The notes: generated by a model from the letters alone, not told the origin. A stretch of DNA of 58,031 nucleotides, filler included, from Jimgerdemannia flammicorona (GCA_003990765.1; 2 parts of 2 records of this genome joined end to end with filler, not necessarily neighbours in it), one strand, 5' to 3'; numbered from the whole stretch's first letter, positions 3,636-43,029 are shown. Translations and numbers: made by a program.

Positions 3636-3644
3636 AAGAAATAA

Positions 3645-6974: not shown

Positions 6975-7395
6975 ACTTTGTCAGTACTGCCAAAGCCTTT
7001 CTGATCTCACTTGGTTGAAGACAGCTTGGTGACTTCTTTGATGACTGGTAGGATGGCTTACTCCAGAATGAGCTGTACAATTCTGTCACCTTCATTGACA
7101 GTATATGATTAGTTCTTGTGGTTGACTAGCAGGACTTGCATTTCACCTTGGAAGTCAGGGTCAATAACTCCAGCACCAACATCTAATGAGTGCTTGAAAC
7201 TGAGGCCAGATCTTGGTACAATCCTTGCAAATTGTTCCTTGGGGATTTCGACTGAAAGGCCAGTTGGAATGAGTCTTCGTTCATGTGCAGGAATAGTGAC
7301 TTGTTGTACTGCTTGAAGGTCCAAACTGATGACTCCTTCTGACTGTGCTTGAGGGATCTGGGCCTTGGGGTTGACTCATATGAAATTGAGTACAA
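6975..7395 (-). pseudogene. dUTPase domain of element A, between gag and protease
   Basis: Motifs RSG, GVIDPDFQG, GDRIVQL and GFGST, in the same frame as the protease ORF 6455-6943. Confidence 0.92.
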
Positions 7396-8420
7396 CTTCT
7401 TGTTCAACTGGTTGACCTTGGGTGTCTTTGGACAGGACCAGAATCCTCTTTGATTTGGCAGTTTTCTTGGGACATTTAGTGCAATGTGATCAGATTGATG
7501 GCAAAAGAAGCAGGCTCCAGCCTTCTTGAGACACTCTTTTCCTTAGATGTAAGCTTGCCTTTCTTGCTCTTGTTAATGATGTCTAGGTCTATGGGGGCAG
7601 GTCTAATAGTTCTGACTTTGAGTTCCTTCCTTTTATAGTTGTTATTGAAAGATGGTCTCTTCTGTTCAAAGCAGTGACCATAGGTGATAACATCAAACCT
7701 ATCAGTAATCTTCATTGCTGTATCTAGGTCCTTGGGTTCTTCTAGTTCGATATGAGCTCAGGTTTGACCTTTCAGGCCTTGGATGTACTTGTTGATCTTC
7801 TTATCTTCAGTGACATATAGTAATTCTAGCAGGATTGACAGGAATTGTACATTATATGCTTATATAAACTTGAGTTGTTTGACATTTGCCAGATAGTCTT
7901 GTGCAGCCTTAGTGTTATTGACTGGTTTGAATTGGTCTTGAATAGCATCAGAGAATTCATTCCAGATTCTGATCTGGCCAGCAAATCTGGTATTCTGGAC
8001 ATGGTTTTACCACCAGATTGTGGCATTCTCTCAGAGGAGTGTGGCAGCGAATTGGACTAGTGTTGCTTCTTCCAAATTGGTCAGTTCTCCATATTGCTCT
8101 AATTGAAAAAGTCAGACATCAGTAGACAGTCCTTATCTTTGACCATCAAAAGTATCAGGCTTCTGGGGCTTGATAGTGACTACTGTTAGGTATATTGATA
8201 TCAGTAGAGGTATGGAGGTATGAGCAGGAGCCTTGCTTTCCTTTCTTTCTATATATTCTTGAAGTTGAGCAATCTGAGCTAATGCAGTCTACAAAAGACT
8301 CTCAATGGCCCCATTTGACTGAGTAGGGTTTTGCTGTTCCTCTTCTTCTTACTGATTGTATGAGGGCATTACCTGGACTGTAGGTACTGTATGAAGGGTC
8401 CCACCTGTTGTCCTCTATAG

Positions 8421-8890
8421 TGTTGTGACTGATATCTTGAGAGGTGTCTTAATAAGGCTAGGTGTAACTTAACTGCTGCTACTAAGTATAATGGTTCTAG
8501 TTTCTAAATGAGGAAGTGACTAGTTCTGGTAGTTCTAAGTAACTTGAAGAGATACTTAAGGATTCAAGTATTCTTGAAGGATTTCTGAGAGAAAATATTC
8601 TGAGACTTTATTTATGAGAACAAAGAGGATATTTATACAAGATCTGAAAGAAGAATCTGGAAGGATCTGAGAAATCAAAGGAAAATATCAAGAGGAAAGT
8701 TTTTGACAAAGATGATAAATGATGACAAATAAAGTTCTATAAGTTTCCAGGACATTCAGTGACTAGCTAAATAAGTACTAGTGGATGCTTGGTAATAAGA
8801 AAGAATTTCTAAGTGTTCAGAAAGTACTGGAAGGTTGTAGAATATTGAGAAAAGATAAAGAAAAGAAACAAACTATGCTAAAATATTATA
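8421..8890 (-). repeat. 5' LTR of element A
   Basis: Upstream of gag; begins TGTTGTGAC and ends AATATTATA (decayed TACA); minus strand has TATAAAT followed by AATAAA (~8605-8640). The partner LTR is outside the window, so boundaries are approximate. Confidence 0.7.
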
Positions 8891-8895
8891 CTCTC

Positions 8896-9340
8896 TTAAT
8901 ATTAAGACTTTACCAGTATATTTTTGTCTTTTTTTTAATTCTAAGTATTTTATCTTAGCTAGTTATAGAACTTTTTAGAATATTGTAAAATTTTATTAGT
9001 TATCTTTTGATAAGATCTTCTCTTAGTACTTTTTTAGTATTTTTTTATTTATTTCTAAGATTCTTTTATATTTTTCTTTCAGATCTTATATAAATATTCT
9101 CTCTGTTTTGCTTAAATAAGACTCAGAATATTTAAATCTTTAGTATCTCTTTAAACTACTTTAGACATATCAGAATCTTTCTGATTTAGTTACTTTTTTT
9201 TATAGAAATCTAGAAATTGGTTATAATTAGTTATATAAACTTAAAATAAATAATAAAGAAAAATCAGTTTAATTAAGTTATATTATAGTTAAAGATACAG
9301 ATTCTGAAGCTTAAATAAATCTTAATAAAATATTATATAA
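8896..9340 (+). repeat. More decayed A-family LTR in opposite orientation, directly adjacent to the first
   Basis: 9074-9131 (ttctttcagatcttatataaatattctctctgttttgcttaaataagactcagaatat) matches the reverse complement of 8595-8652; tagtatctctttaaact matches rc of 8541-8560. Confidence 0.7.
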
Positions 9341-9817
9341 ATAGTATAAATATTAGATTTGAAATTTATAAGTATAATATAATAGTTAATCTAAATTAGA
9401 AAATATAATTAGAAGATAGATATTTGATTTATCTTTTATAAAGAATCTCTTATTACTAGAGATTTTGTTATTATTTTCATCTTTAATCTCTATTATTCTT
9501 AGCTTAGATAATTCTAACTTAGATATATATAGCAGTTGAAAATAATTTTAGTTGACTACTAGAGAGGTTAATAATAGTTATTACTTTGTTTACTATATTT
9601 GTACTGGCTGATATATAGATATAGAGGTCTTGACTAGTATATCTATATAGATTTCTAATCTATCTTCTTTCTTTTCTCAGAACTATATATTATGTAAAAT
9701 GACTATATACTGCTTACATAGATCCTAGAGTCTATATATCTTGTCAGAATACCTAAAAAATATACTTGCCAACTTTTAGCTTGAATTTGTATCAATTAGT
9801 ATTACTTTTATTAAGAA

Positions 9818-10020
9818 TATATCTCTAATATCAATTTGTAGGTAAATTTGCCTATTTAAATTTTATGTCAAAAAAAAATTTAAAAATATAATTTTTGAGT
9901 TTTATTAAAAAAAAATTTTTTAAAAAATTTAAATTAAATATTATATCAAAAAAAAATTTAAAAATATTAAATTTTTTACAGATAAATTTACCTATATCTA
10001 ATTACAATATAAGGAATATA
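9818..10020. mobile_element. AT-rich MITE-like short TIR element (copy 1)
   Basis: Inverted ends tatctctaatat...gtaggtaaatttgcc / cagataaatttacctat...atataaggaata around an A/T core. A second copy is at 39762-44862, split by Ngaro-1. Confidence 0.6.
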
Positions 10021-10030
10021 TTATATCTAA

Positions 10031-10480
10031 TATGATGGTCAATCTGAATTAGTAACATAAATCAGAGAAATTAGATATTTGATCACAGTACCTGAATTCA
10101 ATTCCCAAATATAGCTTAGCCTTAAAAGATAGCAGTCATATTTCACTATTGGCAAAAACTTTACTATTGGTAAAATTTTAGAAGATGGCAAAATCTTTAC
10201 AAATGGTAAAAGATTCAATACTGGTAGAAAATGACTTATTACTTAGCTACCTTATAGCTAACAAACTTGTATAAATAACTCAGTATCTTAGAGTGAATAA
10301 AACTCAGATTGAAATAGTTCAAAGCAAAGAGAAAGCAAAGAAACTAGTAAGCCTGCAGACAGATATACTTTGAACTCACCCACCCCTGCATCCCAAGAAC
10401 TCTGCAGAGTCAAAGAAGATTAAGTTTTTAAGATACAGAAATCTGACATACTTCTAAGGTTAAGCATCTGCTATATTACA
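10031..10480 (+). repeat. 5' LTR of element B
   Basis: TATGATGG...TATTACA, colinear with 16246-16694; TATAAAT at 10270 and AATAAA at 10296. Confidence 0.95.
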
Positions 10481-10595
10481 ACTTGGTGCCTATTGACTGA
10501 TGATTCAAGATAAATTCCTTACTTTCAAACTAAATAATGAATAACTACTACTACTTGAACTACCACATAAACTGAGCCAAAATACTCAGACAAAA

Positions 10596-13500
10596 TGGAT
10601 ATAAGACCACTGATATTCTATAGATATACTTCAGATGAATCAATCATCACTTTCATTGATGACTTTGAGTAGTATACCACTATAAGAACCCTGACAGCAG
10701 TATAGCAAGTAGTCCTCATACCCTTCAGCCTATGAGGTCCTGCCAGAGCAGCATTCATAGCTGCAATCCATATAGGAAATAATGCTGATGCTATACTGAC
10801 AGTACAAAAGACCTGGCTCCAAAACACCTATTATATAGATGAGATCAAGCAAGCCCTAAAGGATCAGCTTAACACAACATACCATGAGATAAGTGAGGAT
10901 CCAAACACATTCTACACCAGAATTCAATATCAGATAATCCTTGCAGACTATGCTAATGCTATTCAAGATCAAGTAGCTGAAGCAACCTTCATAAAAGAAG
11001 TCCACCCAGATAGCTATGGCCATTTGCTCATTACTAGTAGTTCTGGATCTGCTGCAAAAGGTCACCTATGCTCAGCAATATTGGATAGCCAGACACCCAC
11101 AAGATCACACAATGGAAAAAGTCACTAGAGTTAGAATTGAAGTACCAAAGGCAACTAGTGTAATCTCTATCATAATGATCAATTAAAACACACCTCAGCC
11201 AAGAGCTACAGAGCTGTAGAGAAACAGTGACCCTATGGAGGAGCTTGCCAAACAGTTCACTGAAATGACTGCCCACCTAGAAGATGTAGTAAAGGAAATC
11301 AGAGAGAGAGACTGCTGCCCAGTTCAGAAGTTTATCACTACCACAGACAAGAAAAAAGGTACCTGCTACAGCTGTGGAGAGGAAGGCCACTACTCTTATA
11401 AATATAGAGTAAAACCAAGCATAAGACCCAGCCAAGCAATACTACTAAAAACAAGAAACAGGCTAACATTATTATATTTGAGGAAATTGGAGAATCAGAT
11501 GAAGAATAGTAGGCCTATTCTACATAGACTACCAAAAAAGATATTCATAAAGAACCTTACAAGAGGCCACCAGGAAGACCTAAGAAGAACTCAGTAGAAA
11601 AACAAATAGAGATAGCCACAGAAAGCCAAGCTGAAGAAATAGATCAAGATATGGAGCTAGAGCAGATAGTTCAGGATATCATCTGAGGAACCACTCCAGC
11701 CAGTAAAGGAGAAAAGAAGAAGAAGCTCTGCAAGACCAAAACTTTCAAGTATGATATCTTTAAAGACCTCAGCCAACAAAAGGTCAATGCAACCTTTGGT
11801 CAGCTTACAGAAATTCCCACCTTCAGATAGTAAATGAGATTTGGACTGGCAGAAATAATCAAGAAGCAAGGTTGGAAAATAATCAAGGCCAACAACATTC
11901 AAGAAGACTCTGGAGAAGAAAGTAAAGACAACTGCAAGACTTCTGCCTATGCAACTTGCCAAATTAAAGACAGAATCTTTGAGGCCATCATTGATACTAG
12001 AGCAGGAGGATATCTTCTCAGCAAAAAGCAGCAGACTGCCTAGGTTGGGAAGTTGAAGAAGCAACCAAGTTGATATTCATCACAGCAGATGGTATAAGAG
12101 CCACACCTCTGGGAAAAATTTGAGATGTTTCCATCAAGTTTGGAGGAGCAACCATCTCAGTAGATGTAATTGTAACCAATGCAACCAATTATGACATCCT
12201 CATTAGCAATCAATGACTTCACAAAGCCAGAGCAATAATCAACCTCAATGTACAGAAGATACAGATCATCTACTGAGGACAGAAAATATAAATTTCCATC
12301 AATATCAACAAAGAAGTACTTCCCAAAATGGAGAAACAAGAGAGTGAATAAGAGAAAGCCTATATAGTGACCACTCAGAAGAAGAAGAAGAAAGTTGGAT
12401 AAATGAGTAAAGAGAAATAGTATAAGAAGATTGCAGAAGGATATGCACTACAAGGAGTCTGCCCCTACAGGATCAAGATATACTATATGGAGTATATCAA
12501 TGATTGCTACCAGTATACTAGCAGAATCAGGAACATCTACTATGAAAGAAGACAGAAGGCTCTTAAGGAGCAGGCCAAAGAAGAAAAAGAGGAAGAAGAT
12601 GATAAACCACCAGCCCTCCTGGAGGACAGTGATGATGAAGAAGAAATCAAGGTCAAGATTTGAAAGATTCACTCTAATACAGTTCTACCAGAATATAAGT
12701 CAGAAAATGTAGCTAGAATGGACATCACTACTATAGAAGAAACTGTACTGGAACCCCAGATAACTACTTTGCTCACAACTGGTTTGGAAATGACTATACC
12801 AAAAGACTATGTTGGAATTCTCAAGACAAGAAGCAGCCTGGCTAAAAGTGAAATTACTATTGAAGGAGGAGTTATCGACTCAGACTATATTGGAGAAATC
12901 CTACTCATTGTCAGGAATCACAATTCTACAATCCCATTCCCAATCAAGAAGAAGGACTGATTGATACAGATGTTAATCTTTCCAGTTCTACAACCAAAGA
13001 TCATAGGAGTTAAGAAGCTAGAGAAAATAAGGAGAGGAAGGAAAGAAAAGAATCTACTGGAAGAAGAGTATTTGCTAGTACCAAGATTACTGAACTGGAC
13101 TACAAGAAAGAGGAAACTATAGATAAGCATAGCTATACCATCAGAAATAAGTTTTCACTCAAAAAGGAACTCAAGAAGATACTCTACAAATTTGAGGATG
13201 TTCTTGCCACAGACTTCAAGAATATCAAAGAAAAGACCCCACACCACTACCATAATGTAGACACAGGAGATGCAGAACCAATTTATCAGAAGGTAAGACC
13301 CATTCTGTCAGCCTACCATGAATGGCTTAGAGAAGAAATCAAGCAGATGGAAGAAACTGGTATCATCAAAGAAGTCAGTAGTTCTTGGACTTCACCAGTC
13401 ATACTAGCTCTGAAGAAAGAAAGCAAGCCAGGAGAATTTGCCCCAAGGCTCTGCACTGATTACAGGAAACTCAATCTGGTCACTAAGAAAGATCACCAAC

Positions 13501-15763
13501 TACTGCCCCTTATCAGTGATATCCTTGTAACTCTAGGAGATAAAGTACAGTATTACAGCACCTTAGACTTATACTCAGGATTCTATCAAATTAGTCTCAC
13601 AGAAGCAGCAAGTGAAAAATCAGCTTTCATCACCTCAGATGGAATCTATGTCTACTTATGAATACCATTTGAAATATACAATACACTAGTAAGCTTCTAG
13701 TGAATGATGAACAAAATCTTCTGCTATGATATGGGAAGATAGATGATGGTTTATATAGATAATATAATCATTTACAGCAGGACAGCTGAAGAACATCTGT
13801 GGTATATCCAGCAGATGATGGAAAAGTTAAGGAAGTATGGCCTTTACATTAAGCCTAAGAAATATAAGTTTGCAGAAATTGAGATCTCCTATCTTGGTCA
13901 TATCATCAATCAAGATAGAACACATTCAGACCCCCTCAATATACAAGCAGTAGCAGCATATCTAAGACCCACTATCATTACTAAAGCCCAAGCCTTCATG
14001 GAACTCACCTTCTACTACTGAAGATTTATTAAAAAATTCTTTAATATTGCAGGTCCAATCTATGAACTTAACAAGAAGGATACCAAGTTCCAATAGACTG
14101 GTAGGCAGCAATAAGTATTTGATGAGCTCAAGGTTAGACTGACCTAAGCACCCATCCTTAGAAGACCAGACTGGATCCAAGAATTCATCCTTTAGACAGA
14201 TGTAAATGCACAAGGACTAGGAGCAGTCCTAGCTCAGAAGAAAGACAAAGTAGAGTATGTTATTACATATCTCAGCCATAGAACCCAAGGAGCTGAAAAA
14301 GAATACAAATTGTATAAGTTGGAGTACCTTGCAGTCATCTGGGCTGTAGAAAAGTTCCACTACTATCTGACTGGAAGACACTTTACTATTTAAACTGACC
14401 ACTCAGCTCTCACCTAGCTACTGACCACTGGACAACCCAAGGGAATCTATGCCAGATGGATCATGAAGTTGCAAGCCTATGGTATGACTATTGTGTACTG
14501 CTCAGGAAGAACCAATACCAATATAGATGCTCTCTCACAGATACTCTGAAGGACTCTCAACCAACAAATCAATAATGAATAAAGAGCTCTCCTATAGAAT
14601 TATCACATATCTGGGACAGTAAAAGATGCCCCAACATTTGGAAGAATGGACCCAAATGATCATCAACAGAACATGGAAACAATTTGAAACTAATAGAGAA
14701 GTACTGAAGAAAGGAAAACTACTAGTAATACTAGAATGTAAAAAGGAGTAAGTAATGAAATCAGTATATGAACTCAGCCATCTAGATGGAATCAATACAT
14801 ATGATAAAATAAGAAGAACAATGTGGTGGCCAGGAATGGAGGAAGATATTAGACAATTTGTCAAGACCTGTGAAAAATACCAGAAACAAAAACAAGACTA
14901 ATGAAATCAGACTCCAGGATTAGCACATATAGAATCAGTGTCCTTTGCCTATATAGAAATAGATATAATTGGCCAACTACCTCTGATCCTGACTGGCAAC
15001 TGATATATCATTATCATTATAGACCTCTTCACAAAATAGATAGAGGCAGGACCCCTCAAAGAAGCCAATATACAGTCAATTGCTGATTTCTTCCACAAAG
15101 AAATCATCTACCAATTCAAGACTCCAATACAAGTGACCACTGATAGAGGAACAGAATTCATGAACTAGTTCTTTAAGGTTCTCTACAAAAAGTATAAGAT
15201 CTAGTATATTTGGACCACAGCATATTATTCCCAAGAAAATAGATAAGCAGAAAGGACCAACAAGATCCTCAAGAATGTTATTGCTAAGATCTGTGATAAC
15301 TACAAAAATTGGAATCACTATCTGCCAATAGCATTATTTGTTCTCTGGGATATTCGATCACAAAGTACCCATTTTACTCTCTAAGAAATGCTGTTCAGAG
15401 AAGAAAGTTCTCAAGGAACTCTATTAATTAATCAAGATGCTGTATGAAAGCATATAGATATAGAGATACAGAAACTATATCAAATCAGGAAGAAGGCCAA
15501 GGATTATATAAACAAGGTGCAGACACTATAGCAGAATAATGCAGAAAAGATTCACAAACCCCTGAAGATAATCAAGATAGAAGACAAAGTCCTAGTATAT
15601 CAGAATATGGTAGAAGCTTCATGGTCACAAAAACTGGAGCCTAAGTGGGAAGGATCTTATCTTATGCAAGATATAAAAAAAACCACCTTTTGGCTATGAA
15701 AATTCTCAGAAATAATCATTCTTACTACCATCTACCGAAACTGACTCAAGAGATACCATGAAT
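10596..15763 (+). pseudogene. gag-pol of element B
   Basis: CYSCGEEGH knuckle (~11365); AIIDTRAG protease (~11985); LCTDYRKLN, LDLYSGFYQI, YIDN in RT; RNase H TD...GLGAVLAQ; integrase IDIIGPLP, TDRGTEF and KWEGSY. Confidence 0.93.
12690..13075 (+). pseudogene. dUTPase domain of element B, between protease and RT
   Basis: TGLEMTIP, KTRSSL, GGVIDSDYIGEI, then a decayed motif IV/V. Confidence 0.88.
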
Positions 15764-16250
15764 AGTCAACAAAGTAATGTAGTTGCTCTCAGGATTACAA
15801 GTGCTGCCCAATGAGCCATAGAAAGATAGTGGTGTTCTACTGAGCCACCTACAATAGAGGAATCCTTTGACAGCATCCAGAGTATAGTCCAGACCCACTT
15901 ATCATTAATTTCATACTTCAAGGCCTACCAGAACCAAACTAAGCTTCAAGAATACTTCAGTACTAAATTCAAAGTCAGACATGGGAAAAGAAGACTAGAT
16001 CAAGTAATGTCAACTCTTCTACACTCAGATCACAATCACCAAGAGAGTGTATAAGTTATTCAAAGATGATGAGTCAGTCCTAGACTATTTTTGAGAAGTA
16101 GCCCCAACTGACTTTAGACATATCAAGAGATAATATTAGAAGAATGTTATGGTATAAATCCTACAATATAAGAAGATACAAATCATAGAAGTCTGGGAGT
16201 TTGAATAGAATACTTTAGAGATAAATCACTTATTTAGGAGGAAGTTGTGA
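15758..16250 (+). pseudogene. Accessory ORF downstream of integrase (unknown function)
   Basis: ATG overlaps the end of integrase. Reads MNSQQSNVVALR...FKAYQNQ...ITKRVYKLFKDDESVLDYF*EVAPTDFRHI with transition-type stops and one frameshift. Confidence 0.65.
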
Positions 16251-16694
16251 TGGTCAATCTGAATTAGTAACATGAATTAGAGAAATTAGACATTTGATTA
16301 TAATACCTAAATTGATTCCCAAATATAGCTTAGCCTTAAAAGATAGCAGTCATATTTCACTATTAGAGAAAACTTTACTATTGGCGAAATTTTAGGAGAT
16401 GGCAAAATCTTTGCAGATGGTAAAAGATTCAATACTAGCAGAAAATGATTCATTACTTAGCCACCTTATAGTTAGTAAACTTGTATAAATAACCCAGTAT
16501 CTTAGAGTAAATAAAACTCAGATCAAAATAGTTTAAAACAAAGAGAAAGCAAAGGAACTAGTAAGCCTGTGGGCAGATACACTTCAAACTTATCCATTCC
16601 TATATCCTAAGGACTCTGTAGAGTCAAAGAAGATCAAGTTTTCAAGATACAGAAATCTAACATACTTCCAAGGTTAAGCATCTGCTACATTATA
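16246..16694 (+). repeat. 3' LTR of element B
   Basis: TGTGATGG...CATTATA, immediately after the PPT. Confidence 0.95.
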
Positions 16695-17323
16695 CTGAAT
16701 ATATATAGATGAGATATTTAGCTTAGATCTACTCTATAAATCTTCAGAGCTAAGATCATCATCTTTATACTTATTATTATTATTAGATTCCTTACTGAGT
16801 ACTTGAGATATGTATTAATTATATATATATACTACTATATTAATAGTTTTGGCCTAATAAGAATATAATAATCTGATAACATTAATCATTATTTGAATTA
16901 TTGTAATGATTGTATAATTAAATTACTCAGCTATACTATTCTGTTGAGATATAAGGAGCTGTCATTTGATATTATATATTTCATTTTTTCAGAAATTGCT
17001 TAAATATATTATTGATATATTTATATCTATTATCTGATTATATAATACATACTCTATGTTTTGTCTCATTCTCAGTAATTACTTTGAATTCTTTGAATTT
17101 TTCTAAGACTTCACTCTTTGCTAATAAGAAATTATTTCTAGAGTATATATTTAGTAGTAATCTACTAATAGATTTACTCTTTATCATATATTAAAGACTT
17201 ATCTTACTGATATATCCTAAGCATTGATACTATATATTAGATATATCAGATATAGTTATTATATATATAGAGGCTTTTATACTATTTAGCATCTTATTGA
17301 TTATATAAATATTACTATTGTTA

Positions 17324-18844
17324 CATAGTAGTTGCTGAGTCCTTCAAATATACCAGATTCTCTTTAAGGTATATCTCTTAGACTAACTCAAGTTTATTAT
17401 AAGCAAGTTCTTATTGAAGTGCCTTCCCAAGGTCTTATAGTCCTCAAACTTCTTATCTTTAACTATCTTGTTATATCTTAGATTGCTTGCAAGAAAGTAT
17501 ATATAAGTGAACCAGAACTGACTTTATTTCAGAGAAAATAAGAGGAGTATTTATACAAAATATAATTCAATGATTGCTAAGATATAAAGCTAAATATAAA
17601 TTCCAATAACTAAAATAAAATGCCAGAACAGGAAAAACTACTAAGTTCCAGAGTCAGCACTGATGGTTGTACAGGTTCAGGATGCTGATATAATTCAGTG
17701 TTACATCAGAATACTGGTACTGGTATTATTCAGTATTATATCAGAATGCCAGTGCTGGCATTATTCAGTATAACCAAGGGACTTAGAGCAGAATGTTCAG
17801 GACTATGGGGGCTTCATCATCAGAGGTCAGGATGTCTTCAAAGGAGATGAGGTCTGCAAATTCAACATTATCGCATAGGTTATTTTCATGTATGTCATAT
17901 ATTTCACATATATTGTATGAGATGACGTCATCACTGATGATATCATTATATTTAGCAGTAGGAAGGAGGTCTAGAGCTCTCCAGTCTATGAGGTTCTCTT
18001 CCACAAAATAGAGAACAAATGTGGGGTCTTGGGGAGGTCTAACCTAGATGCTTGAGTCTTGGAATATTGAGATCAATTCTTACAGGAATTGGTCTGGGTT
18101 GTTCTAGAGGATAGGATGCCAGAAGTCTTCTACTTCATCACTATTGAGGGTGATAGTGGACTGGGCTTCTGTAGCCACTCTGACTTCTAGTACATTGATA
18201 CAGTGGAATTACAGATCTCTGAAATCTGAGACTCTAACATACTCCAAGTTGGGGATCAACCATGGTGCATACCTGAAGATCTGATGGATCTTTTTAGCTA
18301 TTTTTGCCTCATATATATCTATGGGAGTAGCATCTTGTAGCTCTTGAGGGCTGGCCTGTGGGAACTTCTGGTAGAGGAGGTTTCCTATTTCATACTTCTG
18401 CTATATTTAGAGGTATTCAGTAGTAATGGTAATCCTTGTTTCCATTTCACATATAATGATAAGAGTCACTGGTACTCAGGTTGATACTGGGAGTCCTTCT
18501 TGAGCAGGTCCTCATGGCTATTCTGATGTCTTGGAATATCCTCTCTTCAACTGAGATATCTTGATGGTTTCTTAATTTTGAGGTTTGGTAAACAGCAGGC
18601 ATTTTATTTGTAGTAAGTCTTTGAGCTATTTTGAGATTGGTGGGTCTTGTTGGTTGCTGCTACTGCAGTTCCTTGATCCTTTTTTTATATTCCTCAGGAT
18701 GCTTATACTGTGGTCAAAATGACTCATAGTTGGTCATCATTGCTCATCTTATATACTGTATAATCTTCTTGTGCTCTGATCTAGTGACTTGTAAGAAAAG
18801 ACTATCTTCTATGCTGATGTCATCATTCTGGGGTCACTATTACA
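17324..18844 (-). repeat. 3' LTR of element C (~1520 bp)
   Basis: Minus strand starts TGTAATAGTG right after the PPT; colinear with 24541-26104. Confidence 0.93.
17783..18602 (-). pseudogene. LTR-embedded ORF (~276 aa consensus), 3' LTR copy
   Basis: MPAVYQTSKLRNHQ...YEIGNLL...AKKIHQIFRYAPWLIPNLEYVRVSDFRDL...EENLIDWRA. Lesions are mostly complemented by the other LTR copy. Confidence 0.7.
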
Positions 18845-19214
18845 TCTTCCTCCTGAATAAAGATCTTCTCAAGCATCCTTATTCATTGGTCCAGTCCTGA
18901 AAAATTTTCTGATCCCATAACCTCTGGCAAGGGGTCAAAAAGTGGTATTTATGGGCTGATATCTTCCTTTTGTATTTTGGTGTGATGGTGAAGGGTCACT
19001 CCCTTCATATAGAGCAAGGGCCTGATTCTGATCTTGACCAATCAGTTGATGGTTCAAACTCCTCTAACTCTGAAAGTCTCACAAATGAGTAGTTGCTAAT
19101 ACCATATCCCTTAGAGAATAGTCCAGACAGATAGCCTGCTGGTCACAGTACATGCTGTTATGATTTGTAGACTAGAACCTTATGGGTAGTTATCATGTTT
19201 TGCTTCTCTTATAT

Positions 19215-24420: not shown

Positions 24421-24908
24421 TCTTATCTTGAATTCTTGCAGGAGTGACTCTTGTAGTCAGGGTAGTTGTTGTGGGATTGTTCGTTTTTCAGCTTAAAAGT
24501 AAGAGATTCATCTTGTATCACCAGCCAATGGGCACCAAGACATAGTGGTCGCTAAGTCCTTCAAATTCACCAGATTCTCTTCAAGGTATATCTCTTAGAC
24601 TAACTCAAGTTTGTATAAGCAAGTTCTTATTAGAGTGCCTTCCCAAAGTCTTATAGTCCTCAAACTTCTTATCTTTAACTGTCTTATTATCTCTTAGATT
24701 GCTTGCAAAGAAGTGTATATAAGTGAACCAGAACTGACTTTATTTTAGAGAAAATAAAAGGAGTATTTATACAAAATATAATTCAATGGTTGCTAAGATA
24801 TAAAGCTAAATATAAATTCCAATAACTAAAATAAAATGCCAGGACAGGAAAAACTGCTAAGTTCCAGGGTTAGCACTGATGGTTGTATAGGTTCAGGATG
24901 CTGGTATA

Positions 24909-25025
24909 ATTTAGTATCACATCAGAATACTGGTGCTGGCATTATTTAGTGTTACATCAGAATGCCAGTACTGGTATTATTCAGTATTATATCAGAATAC
25001 CAGTATTGGCATTATTCAGTGTAAC
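24909..25025. repeat. 35-bp tandem repeat with internal palindrome (3 units here; 2 units at ~17693-17773)
   Basis: Unit ATTCAGTGTTACATCAGAATGCCAGTRCTGGCATT; the consensus AATGCCAGTACTGGCATT is self-complementary. Confidence 0.85.
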
Positions 25026-25033
25026 TAAGGAAC

Positions 25034-25862
25034 TTAGAGCAGAATATTCAGGACCATGGGAGCTTTATCATCAGAGGTCAGGATGTCTTCAAAGGAGATG
25101 AGGTCTATGAATTCATTGTCATTACATAGGTCATTTTTATATATATTATGTATTTCATATATTATATGAGATGACGTCATTGCTGATGACATCATCACAT
25201 TCAGCAGTAGGAAGGAGGTCTGGAGCTCTTTAGTCTATGAGGTTCTCTTCTACAAAATAGAGAACAAATGTGGGATCTTGGAGAGATATAATCTGGATGC
25301 TTGGGCCTTGGAATACTGAGATCAATCCTTGTAGGAATTGGTCTGGATTGTCCTAGAGAATAGGATGCCAGAAGTCTTCTACTTCATCACTATTGAGGGT
25401 AATAGTAGACAGGGCTTCTATAGCCACCCTGACTTCTAGTGCATTGATATAGTAGGATGATAGGTCTCTGAAATCTGAGACTCTAACATACTCCAAGTTG
25501 GGGATCAACTATGGTGTATACCTGAAGACCTGATGGATCTTCTTAGCCATTCTTGTCTTACGTATATCTATAGAAGTGGCATCTTATAGCTCTTGAGGGC
25601 TGGTCTGTGAGAACTTCCAGCAGAGGAGGTTTCCTATTTCATACTCCTGCCATATTTGGAGGCATTTGGTAGTAATGGTGATCCTTGTTTCCATTTCATG
25701 GCAGTAGAGGATATAATGATAAGAGTCACCAGTACCTAGGTTGACACTAGGAGTCCTTCTTGAGTGGGTCCTCATGGCTCTTCTGATGTCTTAGAACATC
25801 CTCTCTTCAACTGAGATACCTTGTTGGTTTCTTAATCTTGAGGTTTGGCAAGCAGCAGGCAT
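25034..25862 (-). pseudogene. LTR-embedded ORF, 5' LTR copy
   Basis: Includes track ORF 25584-25775 (MRTHSRRTPSVNLG...YEIGNLL). Retains 11 nt deleted in the other copy and has a 2-nt deletion near the C-terminus. Confidence 0.7.
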
Positions 25863-27649
25863 TTTGTTTATAGTAAGTCTTTGAGCTATTTTGGGATTGA
25901 TGGGTCTTGTTGATTGCTGCTACTGTGGTTTCTTGATCTTTCTATTATATTTCTCAGGATGCTTATACTGTGGTCACAATAACTCACAGTTGGTCATCAT
26001 TACTCATCTTATATGCTATATAATCTTCTTGTGCTCTGATCTGATAGCTTGCAAGGAAAGACTGTCTTCTGTACTGATGTCATTATTCTGGAGTCACTAT
26101 TACACTATGTTTTGAGACTATTAATATCTTATTATTATACAAATCATATACTATTATACTCTTTGCATATATATATATCTCTTTATTACTATATAACATT
26201 ATCTTCTTTATTTAAAAGAGGTTTTTACTAATTTTTAAAGTATATAATATATCTAGGAAGATACTAGCAGATTCTATGATATTGCTTTAGAGATATATTC
26301 CAATATTTCTCTTTTCTAAAGCATAGATAATATTGTTATGTATCTCTTAGTTTGATAAGTATAGAGTACTTAAAAAACTCATATATAGATAACAATTCTC
26401 TATATAATATTATATATTATATAGCTCCTAAATCTATTAATCAGACATTACTATTATTAGCTATATTAATATATTTATTAGATATATAGTTAGGCATACT
26501 GATGTCATTGCTATTTTTATCAGATAAAAAGTATTTTAACTATAATTTATATATATTGTTTATGTGAAAAATATATTGTTTTTATCAGTTTTTATAGTAT
26601 TTATATTTCTTTGCTGACTTCTACTATTTCTATGATAGTTCTTTCCACTACTTCTATATTACTAATACTGGTTTCTATATTTACTTTTACTGCTCTTCTT
26701 ATTTATTTTCTCAGTAATAATAATAGTACTTTCTATATCTATACTTGCTATAGTATTTATAGTAATTATTATACTTGATTGATTAGAAGAACTGATTGTT
26801 ATGATATTAATTTTGGGTTTAGGTTCATTAGCCTTATTATTATCTATACTTTTGACCTTATTTGATACTATATCTGTAAGAACTATAGAAGACATTTTTA
26901 TTATCATTAGTGGTACTGTTTTCTTGATATATTTTCTCATTCATGAGACTCATTATTATATGGGTATACATAATTCATAAGCTTACTACTTTCTATATAG
27001 CTACTATTATGATATCATATACTTTAGAAAGATTTCTTATAAGAGCTAGAACTTTGTCTTCATTACTTATATACTATACTAACATACTTAAAAAATTCAT
27101 CTGATTTATCAGATCATCAATATTACTAACATATTTATGGATAGTTTCCTTGGACTTCATTTATAGATTAAATAGCTGAGATTTTAGTAAAATTGATTCA
27201 ATATAGATATTTGTATATAATGATTATATAGAGTCTCCTATATCTTATAAGCAGTCATTATATGTATTATGAGCTTTATTTGGGAATTTGACAATATAAA
27301 TACAATCTTATATAATACTTGGTAATTATTTATAGTATCATAATCTTGAATTTATCCTTATAGCTTTATACTCTACTAAGTCACATTTATAGTATATTTC
27401 AAAACTGAATCAATGTTTTATTAAATTTTATATTTTAATTATTTAAATAAAAATACTCAAAATAAATATATTTTATATTATAATACATTATTTATATTAC
27501 AGATATTTAAAAATATTAAATTTATTGTTTTTAAATTTTTATTTTATTTTTAAAAAAAAATCTAAAAAAAAAAATTTATTGGTTTAGTTTTGGAACCAAA
27601 TTATTTATAAATATTCTTTATTTAATAGATAGACAATAAATTGAGATAT

Positions 27650-28650
27650 TGTAATATAGTGGATGCAGAATTTAGTAAGTTGGATGAATTTTGGAATTGG
27701 ACTGGTTTGATCTGACTCGTTCTGACTGAGGTTTATTCGCTCTAAAATACTGAGTTATTTATACAGATTTGTGCGCTAATTCTGCTACTAAATATGTGGC
27801 TAAGTATTAAGTCTTTTCATGTGAAATTCTCAGGTAGAATCTCATGTGAAATCCTATCTGAAATTTGTGAAAGTAACAAGAGTTTCACTGATAATGTTTT
27901 AGATGCAGTGTCCGCAGTAAAAGACTATACTAAATCGGAAATTGGATTCAGGTACTATGATCAAATGTCTATTTCCTGTTTCTATTTCATACCATACGTC
28001 ACATCTTCCCCCTGAATAGATTATTTTTGACACAAAAATACCTATTCAAATTCTTACATTGCAATGTTTATATATTTGTTCCCCCTACATGGACATATTT
28101 ATAATATATCCAGGCAATTGTTAAAATGTTATTTGAGGTTCCAAAAGTCTTCAAATAATTAATTCGGGCAGTGGTTTCAGGTGACGGTTCGGGTGACGGG
28201 GTCTTCAAAAATCGGGTGGTGGCTCATCTTCAAATTCTCCAGGATGTCATAGGTGTTCGTATGTTGGGCAGCATTCTTCAAATAATTAACTCGAATGGTT
28301 CGTATATGACGTCTTCAGCTCTCCGTGGTGGTCCATTCGTATGTCGGGTGGTATTCTTCACTCGGGCGGTTTGTATACGATGTCTTCAATTCTGCGGTCA
28401 AAAGTAGGGCGGCATTCTTCAAATAATTAACTTGGGCAGCGGTGGCATTTGGCATGGTGGTTCGTTCAGCGTTTTTTGGCGATTAATTCTTGTAACATTG
28501 TCCCTTAAACTAAGGAGCGACCTGGCTATTAACTCAATGATGTGGTCCTTTGCAGAGCGTCTATTGTTCAATACCGATGACAGTTCACAGAAACGAGGCT
28601 GACAACCAGAACAACCAATTAACAGCAGATAGCGCAGACAAACAATGTCT
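27650..28650 (-). mobile_element. 3' end of a B-related Gypsy element (F): 354-bp LTR 27650-28003, PPT and 3' internal region; CpG-intact
   Basis: TGTAATATAG...CGTCACA followed by the rc of PPT TTCAGGGGGAAGA; LTR blocks match rc of B's LTR (gacatttgatcatagtacctgaat; gcatc...ctatattaca). Assigning 28020-28650 to F is inferred from position. Confidence 0.75.
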
Positions 28651-28654
28651 TCAA

Positions 28655-28974
28655 CGCGCTCTCTCCACTACAATTCACGTTACACACACTTTTCAACACA
28701 CTTTTGAAGCTTTTATTGGAGAAAGATACTAAGGCAATGTCAACCAGCAAGCAAGCCGACACGCGTACTAGGTCGGGTGGACCTGGGGCCTTCGACTGGC
28801 AGACTGTCGGGAGAGGGTATGGATTGGGGATGGGGTCCTTCGGTGGTTCGAGTGGACAGGGTGGCTCCGGCAGTGGAAGTGGCACTGGAGGGGGGGCTGG
28901 GGAGAAGCAGGGGAGGAGCTTTGCGGACACGCTGAGGGGTGGGGGCTGGCCGTTGGGCACTCGTGGTGGACCGG
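28655..28974 (+). mobile_element. 5' end of a young, unmutated copy of the LINE family, cut by the gap
   Basis: Aligns to rc of ~5470-5783 but retains its CpGs. Confidence 0.88.
28737..28974 (+). CDS. LINE ORF1 N-terminus (open until the gap)
   Basis: MSTSKQADTRTRSGGPGAFDWQTVGRGYGLGMGSFGGSSGQ...RSFADTLRGGGWP vs decayed MSISKQANMYTRLGGPGAFD*...RSFADMLRTGGWP. Confidence 0.8.
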
Positions 28975-29074: not shown

Positions 29075-30749
29075 AAAAAAAAAAAAAAAAGATATATCTA
29101 TATATATTTATACTATTTTGAGTAACTATAACTGCTATATAGGAATTTTCATAGAAATTTCTAATAGAATTTCTATCAGAATTTTCAGTAGCTTAGAGAT
29201 ATATAATAATTCATTATAGTAACAAGCAAATAATATAGTTTAGCCAGATAATATAAATACTCAGTATAGTATAGTTATCTATATCTATTTACTCATATAT
29301 ACTACTACTTATAATTAGTCAAAGATATAAATCAGATTTGTTAATCTATATCCTAAGGATATATCTATACTTACTAGATACATATATCTATTGTAATATG
29401 CTGGCTCAATGGAGGCAAATTACAAGGTTGGGGATTGATATAGTTTGGCTTGAGCCCCCAGTTACTTTGTCAAAAAGCAACAAAATGTTCTAAGATTCCT
29501 GAGGTCCTTGGTGTTTAGTGGTATAATAGTTAAAGCTGGATATCTGCGAGTGATTTGTGTATTGATTTCCTAATTGGGATGATTCTTCTGGGTATAGTGG
29601 CGATTTGAGAATGGGTTTCCTTCTTGAGTAGCAGTTGATTTCTTTGTATAGCATAATGATCTCCTTGTGTATAACAGTCTGGTAATTTAGTAGTTCTCCT
29701 TATGCAATTTCTGCATGATGATCTTGTATAGCATGAGTGGTTTCCTTATTTGAGTCAACTGGGAATGGTAGGATTTGTGTATAGCATGAGCAGTTTCCTT
29801 CTTGGATGGCAGGTGATCTTGGAAATAATACTGGCAGCAGATAACTTAACAACTCGGGCTCACTGGAAACAATGAAGAACTCAGATGTCACAGATTTGGC
29901 TTCAACTGGGAATACCACTTGGATGGTCTGGGTCTTCTGGGAATGTGAATAACTTGAAAATGGCAGATAACACAGATTCTCCTGAATTGGCAGACTTCTG
30001 GGAAATAACTTGGATGGTGCGGATTCTTTGGAATCAGCGGCTTCAACTGGAAAGGGTCTCTTGGCAAAGTTGCATCAAAGACTGGCTTTGTTTGCATGAA
30101 TGGGTCACTGCGAAGTTGTGTCAGAAACTGGCTCATGGCAAGAAAGGCAGGCTCTCTGGGAATGGAGCAAAGTTCTTCCTTGAACTTGGCAGAAAACTGG
30201 GATTCTTCAGACTTATCTGGCAAGCATACCAAAAACATAACAAACTCTTCTTTGTATCGGAAAGTGGACTGGAGTGGAAAAAAGGGGAACCAATGCTCAC
30301 AATCTCCTAGTAGTGACTTTAGAGCAGGCATTTCTTCTAAGTATTACAATCCTTCCTGGATCAAGTGGCTTTTGGCAGGTATATCCCTCAAAGTGTAATA
30401 GGCAGACTTGTATTTTGCTTTGAATTTGGACTTTTTGGACTGAGGTTTATTCACTCTTGTCTCTGGGGTAATTTATACAAGTTGGTTGCTATCTGGTTAC
30501 TATGTGGCTAACTATAGATCTGCTACTTATAGCAGGTGTACAGAGTCTGTACAGGTAAACAGACCCTTTCTGGTATATCTGGCTATTTATACAGTTTCAA
30601 CAGCAATAGTTGCTGATTACTATGCTGTGTGTTCATGTCATCTGGCTAATTGTTTATGTCATCTAGCTAAGGTATAATTTGGGTGATATGTCCTGGTTTG
30701 TCACATCAGCTCCCACTGAAGGATAGTCTGTCCCAGACTGTTCTTCAGT

Positions 30750-31255: not shown

Positions 31256-31259
31256 GGTA

Positions 31260-38283: not shown

Positions 38284-38951
38284 AATGTAATATGCCAGCT
38301 CAATGGAGGCAAATTACAAGGTTGGAGATTGATGTAGTTGGCTTGAGCCCACAGTTACTTTGTCAAAAAGTAACAAAATGTTCTAAGATTCCTGAGGTCC
38401 TTGGTGTTTAGTGGTATAATAGTCAAAGCTGGATATCTGTGAGTGATTTGTGTATCAATTTCCTAATTGGGATGGTTCTTTTGGATATAGCAGCAATTTG
38501 AGAATGGGTTTCCTTTTTGAGTAGCAGTTGATTTCTTTATATAGTGTAATGATCTCCTTGTACGTGATGGTCAGATAATTTAGTGGTTCTCCTTATGTAA
38601 TTTCTGCATGATGATCTTGTATAGTGCAAGTGGTTTCCTTCTTAGATGGCAGGTGATCTTGGAAATAATACTGGCAGCAGATAACTTGACAACTCAGGCT
38701 CACTGGGAATAACAAAGAACTCAGATGTCATGGATTCAGCTTCAACTGGGAATATCACTTGGATGGCGCAGATCTTCTGGGAATATGGATAACTTGAAAA
38801 TGGCAGATGACACAGATTCTCCTGAATCAGCAGGCTTCTGGGAAATAACTCAGATGGTGCAGATTCTTTGGAATCAGTGACTTTAACTGGAAAGGGTCTC
38901 TTGGCAAAGTTATGTCAAAGACTGGCTTCATTTGCATGAATGGGTCACTGC

Positions 38952-39095: not shown

Positions 39096-40109
39096 TTTTC
39101 TACTCTAGTTCACTTTCTAATATAAAAAAGAGTCCAAAAAGTTTGAAAGCAAAAGTCAATTATCAATATCTACCAAAAGCTACTTAATTTAAGAAATATT
39201 GCAATACTTAGGAGATACTTATATTGGTCAATGAGCTACTGCTGAAAAGTTGTGAGCTTTGTCTTATTCTTACTCTAGTTTACTTTTCAATATAAAGAAG
39301 AAGCCTGACTGTATAAAACCAGTCTAGTATAAGATATATCTTTATAGTAAATAACCTAGTTCATATAAATAAAGCAGTTTTTGATATAACTTTACTTAAG
39401 AGAAAGTCTGCTATTTTTTGGAAAATATGCTTTATTTAAAAATTCTGCTGGTTTAGAAAGAATTTGTATTAACTAAATTATATATATATCTACTATTTTC
39501 AAATAATCTATATTATCTATTTAATAAGAAATTCTGCTAAATTACTTATATAATATCAAGATCAAGATATTTATATAGAAAATTACATACTTTGGAAACA
39601 AATCATCATATAGAAATTATATATATAAGGAAACTGCTCTTACTATACAATCTACTTAAAAAGGAAACTACTGAAATTGTCAAATTACTACTATATCCAA
39701 GAACCTGTCCTAATTAGGAAATTACTGAAATTATCTATATTATGTATACAAAATGGAGAACTTATCTCTTATATCATAATCAGATACAGATAAATTTGAT
39801 ATAGTTATGAATACAATTCAAACTTCAGCAAAGTGGCTGAGAGCCACTTAACATTATGCAGAACAATCATGCAATTTCCCCTTGGCAGACTTAGTTTAGC
39901 TCATTTCATACAGTTTCTTGTCCCTTTCTATGTCAAAGATAACTTAGCTAGTGGTGTTTTAAAAATACGCCAACCATTAATGTGAGTTAGTAACAATGTA
40001 ATCGGTCCAGTGACTGAGTATTCATCACATCTCAGCTAGTCAGGCATATACTATATCAAGTTGCAATTAGTCACTAGTATTTACAATCAGTTTGCGTACC
40101 ACATTCACA

Positions 40110-43010: not shown

Positions 43011-43029
43011 TCCCCAGGACCCATTGCCT

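Follow-up and report, generated by a model that had tools for sequence, protein, structure and literature searches.

Almost transition-only decay of transposon copies in Jimgerdemannia flammicorona follows the base 3' of the cytosine and is consistent with methylation-linked hypermutation

Described systems of C-to-T change in fungal repeats

Classical RIP, the RID-dependent process of Neurospora and the Pezizomycotina, introduces C:G to T:A transitions into repeats, on both strands and in both copies, creates stop codons and drives old copies to AT-rich relics. All of these features recur in the transposon copies described here. Neurospora RIP is described as preferentially directed at CpA (PMC8016269), whereas CpG >> CpA > CpC >> CpT was the order in our material, and RID is reported from Ascomycota only (PMC13297926). 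In a second, heterochromatin-related branch of Neurospora RIP, C-to-T mutation of repeats depends on the DNMT1-like methylase DIM-2, not RID, in concert with the H3K9me3 machinery; in Neurospora the branch is homology-triggered, runs in the sexual phase and belongs to an ascomycete (bioRxiv 10.1101/115501). We propose a similar enzyme for our locus. In transposons of Zymoseptoria tritici, Dim2-dependent 5mC was found at ~43-61 % of CG, ~10-22 % of CA, ~3-8 % of CC and <0.01 % of CT, and during mitosis methylated repeats acquire more C>T mutations when Dim2 is present (PMC8016269). The context rank CG > CA > CC with an almost untouched CT and the near-exclusive C>T change are shared with our locus; in Z. 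tritici the system is confined to transposons, in which CA/TG is lowered and TA raised (PMC8016269). However, in mutation-accumulation lines of this fungus >98 % of the C>T changes fell on CA and CG hardly mutated (PMC8016269), whereas CpG changed most in our repeats (78/96). The match is thus one between the mutation spectrum here and the methylation preference there, not the mutation spectrum there. Z. tritici is also an ascomycete with RID and classical RIP, and both enzyme and methylation are putative in our case.

Outside the ascomycetes, CpG transitions are over-represented in transposons of Basidiomycota, as in our window, and were attributed there to 5mC deamination (PMC3318451). Other dinucleotides are not elevated in Agaricomycotina and Ustilaginomycotina according to the same source, in contrast to the strong elevation of CpA and CpC in our material, and Pucciniomycotina require a 5'-T (TpCpG) (PMC3318451), whereas the 5' base had no clear influence at our CpG sites. 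Phycomyces blakesleeanus, an early-diverging fungus of the host's phylum, the Mucoromycota, encodes DIM2 and DNMT1; its transposons are methylated at CG and CHH, with 5mC almost exclusive to repeats and highest on LTR elements (PMC11258239). That study reports methylation, not mutation, and found CHG not enriched (PMC11258239), while CAG mutated like CAH in our repeats.

Element B, a decayed Ty3/gypsy retrotransposon

The window, i.e., the whole stretch of DNA analysed, comprises 58,031 nucleotides, filler included, and consists of two parts of the J. flammicorona genome (GCA_003990765.1) joined end to end. The element studied most closely, element B, has the following parts.

10027..10030, plus strand: left target-site duplication CTAA, equal to the CTGA at 16695-16698 bar one G/A transition (sequence)
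10031..10480, plus strand: 5' LTR, 450 bp, TA..CA, originally TG..CA (find_repeats-type repeat search, MAFFT)
10483..10490, plus strand: PBS-like TTGGTGCC just inside the 5' LTR (sequence reading)
10595..11393, plus strand: tentative remnant of gag in which 11364-11393 resembles a CCHC zinc knuckle (translation judged by eye)
12682..13044, plus strand: dUTPase domain, stops read through (Pfam PF00692, E = 2.8e-20, 72.9 bits)
13233..14543, plus strand: reverse transcriptase and RNase H, 11 in-frame stops (translation, Pfam, homologues)
14743..15225, plus strand: integrase, H2C2 zinc-binding domain and rve core, in a frame differing from that of the reverse transcriptase (Pfam PF17921, 5.2e-13; PF00665, 8e-8)
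16246..16694, plus strand: 3' LTR, 449 bp, with the purine tract AGGAGGAAG upstream (repeat search, MAFFT, sequence)
16695..16698, plus strand: right target-site duplication CTGA (sequence)

The LTR pair, the target-site duplication and the Pfam order RVT_1, RT_RNaseH, Integrase_H2C2, rve, plus dUTPase, identify element B as a Ty3/gypsy LTR retrotransposon. Its 4-bp flanks CTAA and CTGA, one G/A transition apart, support a single insertion event. The word TTGGTGCC, which in reverse complement also adjoins an LTR of element A (24525-24539), is a putative primer-binding site. A Pfam search of the putative gag frame (10595-11800) found no domain. The RT-RNase H reading matched RVT_1 (1.3e-20), RT_RNaseH (6e-30) and RT_RNaseH_2 (2.1e-27) and had 457 homologues at E <= 1e-20. 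The pol reading carried 38 stops in 1,238 codons and the integrase reading 17 in 400.

The LTRs of element B are direct repeats, separated by about 6.2 kb. Between the BLAST/MAFFT ends (10033-10480 and 16248-16694), 395 of 447 aligned columns were identical, with 51 transitions, 1 transversion and 1 one-base indel; with the start shifted two bases to the left, where TG of the 3' copy faces TA of the 5' copy, the 450- and 449-bp LTRs differed by 52 transitions, 1 transversion and 1 gap column. These are exactly the counts that a preliminary description had estimated by hand, and all four changes it listed (atcag/attag, gacat/gatat, catga/cataa, cctga/cctaa) were present in the alignment. The chance of 52 transitions among 53 substitutions is P = 1.6e-8 at a transition share of 67 % and still P = 1e-4 at 80 %. 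By type, 29 differences were C/T and 22 A/G. Context was assignable for 49 of the 51 transitions: CpG 8/8, CpA 27/58, CpC 8/28 and CpT 6/68 had changed. Forty-one of the 49 lay outside CpG, which agrees with the earlier statement that many of the changes are CA>TA or TG>TA, as well as at CpG.

The coding region gave the direction. In a comparison of the RT-RNase H of element B with 57 homologues, 41 of 146 conserved codons differed: 20 by C>T or G>A, 2 by the reverse transitions and 8 by transversions, while 4 were ambiguous and 7 multi-step. Five of the 11 stops stood opposite strongly conserved residues (Q in 48/57 homologues, R in 54/57, R in 57/57, W in 56/57, W in 41/57). The other six lie at variable columns, which allow no judgement. 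For the proposal that stops throughout the window replace CAA, CAG, TGG and CGA codons, the scope of this comparison is the RT-RNase H frame of element B only.

Transition excess, neighbour-base rule and compositional ageing across the window

Further repeats and relics extended the comparison beyond element B.

8300..10026, no strand: AT-rich relic, GC 0.24, no CpG, host site of the element B insertion and apparent end state of decay (composition)
17323..18844, minus strand: LTR of element A, a gypsy element with dUTPase (self-BLAST; BLAST ends, +/- few bases)
24540..26104, minus strand: second LTR of element A (self-BLAST, MAFFT)
26105..27700, no strand: second AT-rich relic, GC 0.20, no CpG (composition, CT:CA ratio 1.58)
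27718..28972, minus strand: young copy of a LINE-like element, CpG retained (49 CpG, o/e 0.80), adjoining an assembly gap (sequence comparison, composition)
29392..30111, minus strand: LTR of element C, a gypsy element with dUTPase (self-BLAST)
38286..38951, minus strand: second LTR of element C (self-BLAST)
39795..40098, plus strand: LTR of element D, the youngest LTR element, internal CpG o/e 0.35 (self-BLAST, composition)
44272..44575, plus strand: second LTR of element D (self-BLAST)

Pfam matches placed the dUTPase of element A at 21808-22485, and dUTPase and RVT_1 of element C at 33899-34651 and 32616-33329. The LINE-like ORF has a length of 441 aa. Host genes were sought among 67 ORFs of at least 55 aa in the less-annotated parts of the window; only dUTPase and one sub-threshold Med31 match were obtained, the latter rejected as spurious (23.1 bits against a cutoff of 25, on a low-complexity SELSEL repeat). 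These 67 were picked from 100 ORFs; the 33 omitted came for the most part from the plus strand of the C-rich block 1-4700 and included three on the minus strand (6458-6952, 1294-1683) that had already been Pfam-scanned. A transition-tolerant pattern of the LTR of element B had 0 matches in metagenome contigs, and no look-alike stretches were found among the other genomes scanned.

All five repeat pairs were rich in transitions: 52 against 1 transversion in B, 153 against 10 in A (1519 columns, 4 indels), 65 against 3 in C (666 columns, 2 indels), 22 against 0 in D (304 columns) and 8 against 0 in the pair D2. Pooled, with B at its count of 51, 299 transitions stood against 14 transversions (Ts:Tv 21), and 300 transitions out of 314 correspond to P = 1e-35 against a 67 % transition share. 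The LINE-like family showed the same direction, as 39 changes from the young copy toward the old copy (5484-5768) were C/G>T/A, 9 were the reverse and 8 were transversions. When a third, partial copy (46366-46575) was used to polarise the LTR differences of element C, this third copy had the G/C allele at 4 sites, the A/T allele at 4 and another base at 4, an even split.

The C:G to T:A changes were distributed about equally over both strands and both copies; in element B, 10 G and 13 C had changed in copy 1 and 10 G and 16 C in copy 2. Runs tests on strand labels gave P > 0.18 in seven of eight cases and P = 0.018 in one, those on copy labels P > 0.4 in four of four. Processive mutation bursts appear unlikely on this lack of clustering, although repeated RIP rounds could also erase strand runs. 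Concerted double mutation at CpG was discarded too, as TA was present in just 4 of 98 copy states. GC skew reached a magnitude of up to 0.5 in the blocks 1-6000, 40-44 kb, 48-52 kb and 56-58 kb. A strand-asymmetric mutation process was considered for the LINE-like family of 1-6000 and dismissed. The skew is native there: in the young CpG-rich copy it is stronger still, with 108 C and 57 G among 284 bases, and the old copy departs from the young one by C>T at 22 sites and by G>A at 17.

The 3' neighbour governed which cytosines changed. Over the five pairs, 78 of 96 CpG, 133 of 448 CpA, 60 of 296 CpC and 20 of 430 CpT had been altered, and the order CG > CA > CC >> CT was common to all four pair sets. 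CpA exceeded CpT with an odds ratio of 9.3 (Fisher p = 2.6e-25) and CpC exceeded CpT with 5.5 (p = 3.8e-11), which bears out the earlier observation that the transitions extend beyond CpG. As per-copy hazards this amounts to 1.15 for CpG, 0.19 for CpA, 0.12 for CpC and 0.024 for CpT. The second downstream base had no effect (CAG 33/117, CAH 99/322, p = 0.64); thus no preference between CHG and CHH was found in the pooled pairs. The 5' base had a modest effect at CpA (ACA 37/84 vs the rest, p = 0.002) and made no clear difference at CpG (ACG 15/17, CCG 22/24, GCG 20/27, TCG 21/28). Without a +2 effect and with a modest 5' effect, the specificity sits with the 3' neighbour, which is also true of DNA methyltransferases. 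A CpG-only methylation decay of the DNMT1/DNMT5 type was rejected since CpA and CpC are also raised over CpT, and hidden CpG sites do not account for the CpA changes, because a CpG-only process is unable to yield a C/T difference before a shared A.

Composition provided evidence independent of the repeat-pair alignments. Along blocks of rising age, CpG o/e fell from 0.80 over 0.35, 0.08 and 0.02 to 0.00 and GC from 0.44-0.47 over 0.37-0.43 to 0.20-0.24, while the CT:CA ratio among surviving cytosines rose from 0.78 over 0.87 and 1.05-1.23 to 1.58-2.22. In the relic 8300..10026, 61 % of the remaining cytosines precede T, with a CT:CA ratio of 2.22.

RIP indices were computed in 29 bins of 2 kb. 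Thresholds are 0.89 for TpA/ApT and 1.03 for (CpA+TpG)/(ApC+GpT), and RIP is indicated by high values of the former and low values of the latter. The second index was 1.16-1.66 in 27 of the 29 bins, and values near the threshold were confined to two relic bins, 8001-10000 (0.97) and 26001-28000 (1.08).

Methylation-linked hypermutation and its rivals

As the best reading, the outcome resembles RIP yet differs from classical, CpA-specific RIP. The preliminary description had called the pattern RIP-like and proposed a repeat-directed mutator or pervasive methylation at CpG and non-CpG sites. Strong C-to-T hypermutation at CpG, CpA and CpC stands; the classical sense of the label is not supported, with CpG as the main target, CpC third, CpT spared, indices mostly negative and no strand clustering, and the methylation alternative fits better. 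We consider it probable (roughly 0.6) that silenced transposon copies undergo methylation-linked C-to-T hypermutation by a DIM-2/DNMT1-type system. From the patterns above we infer the link to methylation, the identity of the enzyme and the confinement to repeats. A cytosine methyltransferase system of this type would mark transposon DNA on both strands, with a preference for C before G, then A, then C, and would almost ignore C before T. Marked cytosines would turn into thymine when 5-methylcytosine deaminates spontaneously or through action of the enzyme itself, and the T:G mismatches so formed would be left unrepaired. Over time CpG would be lost, CpA and CpC would decay at about 1/6 and 1/10 of the CpG rate, CpT would survive and GC would sink from ~45 % to ~20 %. 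The CpA per-copy hazard of 0.19 is far above the ~0.002 transversions per site. Passive deamination at sites methylated only in part may be insufficient to explain this, so that an active mutator could be involved. An enzyme-driven C-to-T transposon mutator in an early-diverging, non-Dikarya fungus, either a self-deaminating DIM-2-type methyltransferase or a RID-independent relative of RIP, is a possibility, though we hold it only tentatively. Neurospora DIM-2 is described as CpT-preferring (PMC13297926; PMC8016269), so that the term DIM-2-type alone does not predict the sparing of CpT. A published tree places sequences of Phycomyces, Basidiobolus and Rhizophagus in the Dim2 clade (PMC10538959 supplement); Jimgerdemannia and Endogone have 0 occurrences in the supplements of that tree (PMC10538959).

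A RIP-like process proper, in which duplicates recognised by homology are mutated in bursts at a pre-meiotic or otherwise restricted stage, by an undescribed enzyme or a Neurospora-like DIM-2-dependent branch, seems doubtful to us. Ts:Tv values of 21 in the pool and 52 in element B are nearer to RIP than to the ordinary methylation decay of plants and mammals. Both members of each pair are mutated about equally, the CpA hazard is ~100x the per-site transversion rate, the oldest relics reach classical index values (TA/AT 1.15 and (CA+TG)/(AC+GT) 0.97 in 8001-10000), and Neurospora has a DIM-2-mediated C-to-T pathway that acts on repeats (bioRxiv 10.1101/115501). Against it stand CpG rather than CpA as main target, CpC mutated four times more than CpT, the index above threshold in 27 of 29 bins, the scarcity of CG>TA double events and the lack of strand and copy runs but for the one strand test at P = 0.018. 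Decay also runs on to 20 % GC, far past the loss of inter-copy homology. RID is listed for Ascomycota only (PMC13297926), and a kingdom-wide k-mer screen reported RIP-like signatures in ascomycetes only (PMC12543289).

An ordinary, genome-wide mutation bias, visible merely because dead transposons are neutral, would require no direction toward repeats, and the window, with 67 ORFs scanned, holds no single-copy gene as control. We regard it as improbable nevertheless. New copies have near-expected CpG (o/e 0.80 in 27718-28972, 0.35 in element D) beside older neighbours at 0.00-0.08, which indicates that CpG is retained in the active source lineages of this genome. Family-member divergence, which includes active life, had a Ts:Tv of just 533:122 and 212:55. 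The transition share (300/314) and the 9-fold contrast between CpA and CpT lie far outside ordinary mutation spectra. Least probable of all appears editing by an AID/APOBEC-like cytidine deaminase, which would act on the cDNA as it is being reverse-transcribed or on the chromosome. Such enzymes yield pure C>T changes, and these retroelements carry a dUTPase, whose function is tied to uracil in DNA, an association only. However, editing of minus-strand cDNA would leave G>A in the sense strand only, whereas element B has 29 C/T and 22 A/G, and the differences postdate insertion, the LTRs being identical at that time. The specificity lies in the 3' neighbour, while the AID/APOBEC enzymes known so far respond to the base on the 5' side, and the strong GC skew of the LINE-like family is native, not acquired.

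The hypermutation has practical and evolutionary implications. LTR dating is unreliable here, as had been suspected: element B has a K2P distance of 0.134 but one of 0.0022 when only transversions are counted, and the two differ 60-fold. Ages from LTR divergence are inflated in this genome; element B would appear ~20x too old even if transitions were twice the transversions, a figure that rests on a single transversion. If the host belongs to the Endogonales, a RIP-like outcome occurs in a lineage for which published screens report none, the kingdom-wide k-mer screen having found RIP-like signatures only in ascomycetes (PMC12543289). In a full-text literature search, no paper was found that describes hypermutated transposons from Jimgerdemannia, from Endogonales or from other Mucoromycota. 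Should the reading as an active mutator be true, a repeat-directed hypermutation defence would predate the Ascomycota or have arisen outside them, contrary to that screen (PMC12543289). The 3'-neighbour rule predicts 5mC at CG > CA > CC, not at CT, in transposons only, and a Dim2-clade writer. The J. flammicorona genome is said to consist of >77 % repeats (PMC10386755), and the finding bears on how such a genome copes with its transposons.

Retroelement content of the window

Self-BLAST and Pfam searches over the 58,031 bases revealed a heap of dead retroelements, with AT-rich relics filling the space between them.

Retroelements identified by self-BLAST and Pfam
1-6160 and 56-58 kb: LINE-like reverse-transcriptase remnants
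10031-16694, plus strand: B, Ty3/gypsy element with dUTPase
17323-26104, minus strand: A, Ty3/gypsy element with dUTPase
27718-28972: young LINE-like fragment
29392-38951, minus strand: C, Ty3/gypsy element with dUTPase
39795-44575: D, younger LTR element

Two short N gaps lay inside 28975-29074 (28975-29018 and 29031-29074). No host gene was found by Pfam among 67 ORFs from the less-annotated parts of the window, which yielded only a dUTPase match and a sub-threshold Med31 match (52397-52597, minus strand; 23.1 bits, cutoff 25); the latter was rejected as spurious, consisting of microsatellite-like, low-complexity SELSEL repeats.

With stops read through, element B presented the Pfam domain order dUTPase (PF00692, E = 2.8e-20), RVT_1 (1.3e-20), RNase H (6e-30), integrase zinc domain (5.2e-13) and rve core (8e-8), and its pol region held 38 in-frame stops in 1,238 codons read. 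Within 12028-15405 the protease-dUTPase and the integrase shared a frame and RT-RNase H occupied another, either by a designed frame change or by an indel in a decayed copy. A dUTPase domain was located in the protease-RT interval of four gypsy copies, at 12682-13044 (B), 21808-22485 (A), 33899-34651 (C) and 7112-7375 (a fragment), with Pfam E values of 1e-23 to 2.8e-20; it was also present in some of the nearest database relatives, e.g., P0004 and P0006. The internal regions of A and B were only 66 % identical by self-BLAST. In both, the word TTGGTGCC adjoined the LTR (10483-10490 and 24525-24539), presumably the same tRNA primer site. A 155-bp direct repeat, D2, stood either side of the 3' LTR of D (44121-44275 and 44618-44772) and may stem from a rearrangement or from a second insertion that was truncated. 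An inverted repeat pair (46844-47055 and 52184-52394; 211 columns, 26 transitions, 12 transversions) enclosed a purine-rich 5-kb block, which at 48-52 kb had a GC skew of +0.2 to +0.34, an AT skew of +0.15 to +0.18 and no Pfam match.

Transitions in repeat pairs and their sequence context

Alignment of the two LTRs of B (10031-10480, 450 bp; 16246-16694, 449 bp) reproduced the differences counted by hand in the preliminary description, 52 transitions, one transversion and one single-base indel, and located all four examples quoted there; the narrower BLAST ends gave 51, one and one. The 4-bp target duplication, with flanks CTAA and CTGA one transition apart, indicates that the pair stems from a single insertion. 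If as many as two thirds of ordinary changes are transitions, the probability of 52 among 53 substitutions is still 1.6e-8. The excess extended to the other repeat pairs, with transition to transversion counts of 153:10 (A), 65:3 (C), 22:0 (D) and 8:0 (D2), thus 299 to 14 over five pairs with the BLAST ends for B. Comparisons between family members, which also take in divergence from the active life of the elements, gave far lower ratios (533:122, 212:55, 44:14 and 26:12).

For the context analysis, the C of each C/T difference and the G of each G/A difference were treated as ancestral, and the strands were pooled; a context could be assigned to 291 of the 299 transitions. The cytosines hit amounted to 78 of 96 in CpG, 133 of 448 in CpA, 60 of 296 in CpC and 20 of 430 in CpT, an order identical in B, A, C, and D plus D2 taken separately. 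Both CpA (odds ratio 9.3, p = 2.6e-25) and CpC (odds ratio 5.5, p = 3.8e-11) differed strongly from CpT. Sites mutated in both copies are unseen in a pair; per-copy hazards allowing for this were approximately 1.15 (CG), 0.19 (CA), 0.12 (CC) and 0.024 (CT). The CpT hits, and a part of the other classes, may be ordinary background. As a C/T difference before a shared A is impossible for a process restricted to CpG, the CpA hits must have arisen outside CpG. The second downstream base had no effect (CAG 33 of 117, CAH 99 of 322, p = 0.64). The outer cytosine of CCG was hit in only one of 24 cases, as expected if the inner CpG cytosine mutates first and leaves a protected CpT. Upstream, the 5' base had a modest effect at CpA (ACA 37 of 84, all others 96 of 364, p = 0.002) and none at CpC.

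Hits were similar in number between both copies and both strands. Runs of strand labels within each copy had P > 0.18 in seven of eight tests and P = 0.018 in one, and runs of copy labels along the alignment had P > 0.4 in all four; neither set of labels indicated bursts or a bias to one strand, though repeated rounds of RIP might also have erased such runs. The 49 inferred ancestral CpG sites were now CA/TG (30), CG/TG (6), CA/CG (6), CG/TA (4) or CG/CG (3) in the copy pair, a pattern of isolated hits to one strand or the other, double hits being rare.

Direction of change and base composition

Polarity cannot be derived from a pair alone, thus two outside references were used. The translated RT-RNase H of B (P0001) was placed in an alignment with 57 homologues (P0004-P0060), chosen out of 120 proteins among the matches listed. 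In 146 columns the homologues were conserved to 80 % or more, and B deviated in 41 of these: 20 were single-step C>T or G>A changes and two the reverse transition, the others being transversions (8), ambiguous (4) or more than one step away (7); with homologues about 34-43 % identical to B, some of the deviations other than C>T may reflect divergence between lineages instead of decay. Of the 11 stops in this region, five faced conserved residues (Q, R, R, W, W). As second reference, an old LINE-like copy (5484-5768) was compared to the young, CpG-holding copy (28668-28951): C or G in the young copy stood against T or A in the old one at 39 sites, the opposite direction was observed at nine, and eight sites were transversions. 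A third, partial copy of the LTR of C, used as a further polarity reference, had the G/C allele, the A/T allele and another base four times each.

An age series based on block composition alone, independent of pairing, agreed with the results of the repeat pairs.

Composition of blocks (CpG observed/expected; GC content; CT:CA ratio of the remaining cytosines)
Young LINE-like copy: 0.80; 0.44; 0.78
Element D: 0.35; 0.47; 0.87
Element C: 0.08; 0.43; 1.05
Element A: 0.02; 0.41; 1.14
Element B: 0.01; 0.37; 1.23
Relic 26105-27700: 0.00; 0.20; 1.58
Relic 8300-10026: 0.00; 0.24; 2.22

The young copy and element D together held 116 of the 198 CpG in the window. The CpG island at 27718-28972 (49 CpG, observed/expected 0.80), which we read as a probable recent LINE-like insertion, stopped exactly at the N gap. 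The LINE-like family (1-6160, 27718-28972 and 56000-58031) had about 35 % C and 12-15 % G on the plus strand, the sense strand being G-rich and C-poor, and the young CpG-rich copy already showed this very strong GC skew. For the family at 1-6000, strand-specific mutation, which the strong GC skew of some blocks had suggested, was rejected as source of the skew, which is native to it since the young copy is skewed at least as much as the old. A 441-aa LINE-like ORF (4310-5635, minus strand) had only four database relatives, with 48-59 % identity, and no Pfam domain.

Probable methylation-linked decay and related systems

That the 3' neighbour governs the specificity, equally on both strands and most strongly at CpG, argues for a DNA cytosine methyltransferase. 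Our preferred explanation, with a probability of roughly 0.6, is a Dim2-type, methylation-linked C-to-T hypermutation: silenced copies would be methylated by a Dim2/DNMT1-type system, and the methylated cytosines would turn into thymines. Given how large the non-CpG effect is, an enzyme may also take an active part in the conversion. Editing by an AID/APOBEC-like enzyme, which would also exchange C for T, is the least probable of the explanations considered; such a deaminase would read the 5' neighbour. A mutation bias acting on the whole genome is improbable as well; new copies arrive with their CpG, hence the active lineages from which they derive escape erosion at this rate within the same genome, indirect evidence, of less weight than a single-copy control, for a process aimed at silenced copies. 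Somewhat less remote, yet still unlikely, is a homology-triggered relative of RIP. The preliminary description had read the LTR pair of B as RIP-like, transition-only hypermutation by a mutator or by CpG plus non-CpG methylation. C-to-T hypermutation at CpG and non-CpG sites was borne out by the context counts, whereas the classical RIP indices did not follow: (CA+TG)/(AC+GT) was 1.16-1.66 in 27 of 29 2-kb bins and TA/AT ranged from 0.59 to 1.21. Only the relic bin 8001-10000 (0.97 and 1.15, respectively) passed the usual thresholds of 1.03 and 0.89. CpA and TpG are constantly replenished by the decay of CpG, and this may partly explain why k-mer or index screens would overlook the pattern.

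The Dim2-type reading has a parallel, if an imperfect one, in Zymoseptoria tritici. According to PMC8016269, Dim2 methylates transposons there at about 43-61 % of CG, 10-22 % of CA, 3-8 % of CC and less than 0.01 % of CT, and, during mitosis, brings about a more than tenfold increase in C>T mutation of methylated repeats, an effect its authors term a mitotic version of RIP. The context order of the mutations observed here equals this published 5mC preference; however, CG sites were hardly mutated in that experiment, while they mutate first here. In Neurospora, DIM-2 is described as favouring CpT (PMC13297926, PMC8016269), the context spared here. Dim2-class enzymes are reported beyond the ascomycetes: both DIM2 and DNMT1 occur in Phycomyces (Mucoromycota), where transposons, LTR elements most, are methylated at CG and CHH (PMC11258239, PMC7862722, PMC13297926), and sequences of Phycomyces, Basidiobolus and Rhizophagus stand beside Neurospora Dim2 in a published tree (PMC10538959, supplement file 7). 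A kingdom-wide screen reported RIP-like signatures in ascomycetes only (PMC12543289) and a basidiomycete survey CpG or TpCpG effects only (PMC3318451). The literature pairing Jimgerdemannia with RIP or transposons consisted of passing mentions, and the literature searched, which excluded the Endogonales genome study of Chang et al. (2019) and Bewick et al. (2019), contained no account of hypermutated transposons in Mucoromycota. The pattern amounts to a RIP-like, probably methylation-linked decay of transposons with a CpT-sparing spectrum, apparently outside the Dikarya.
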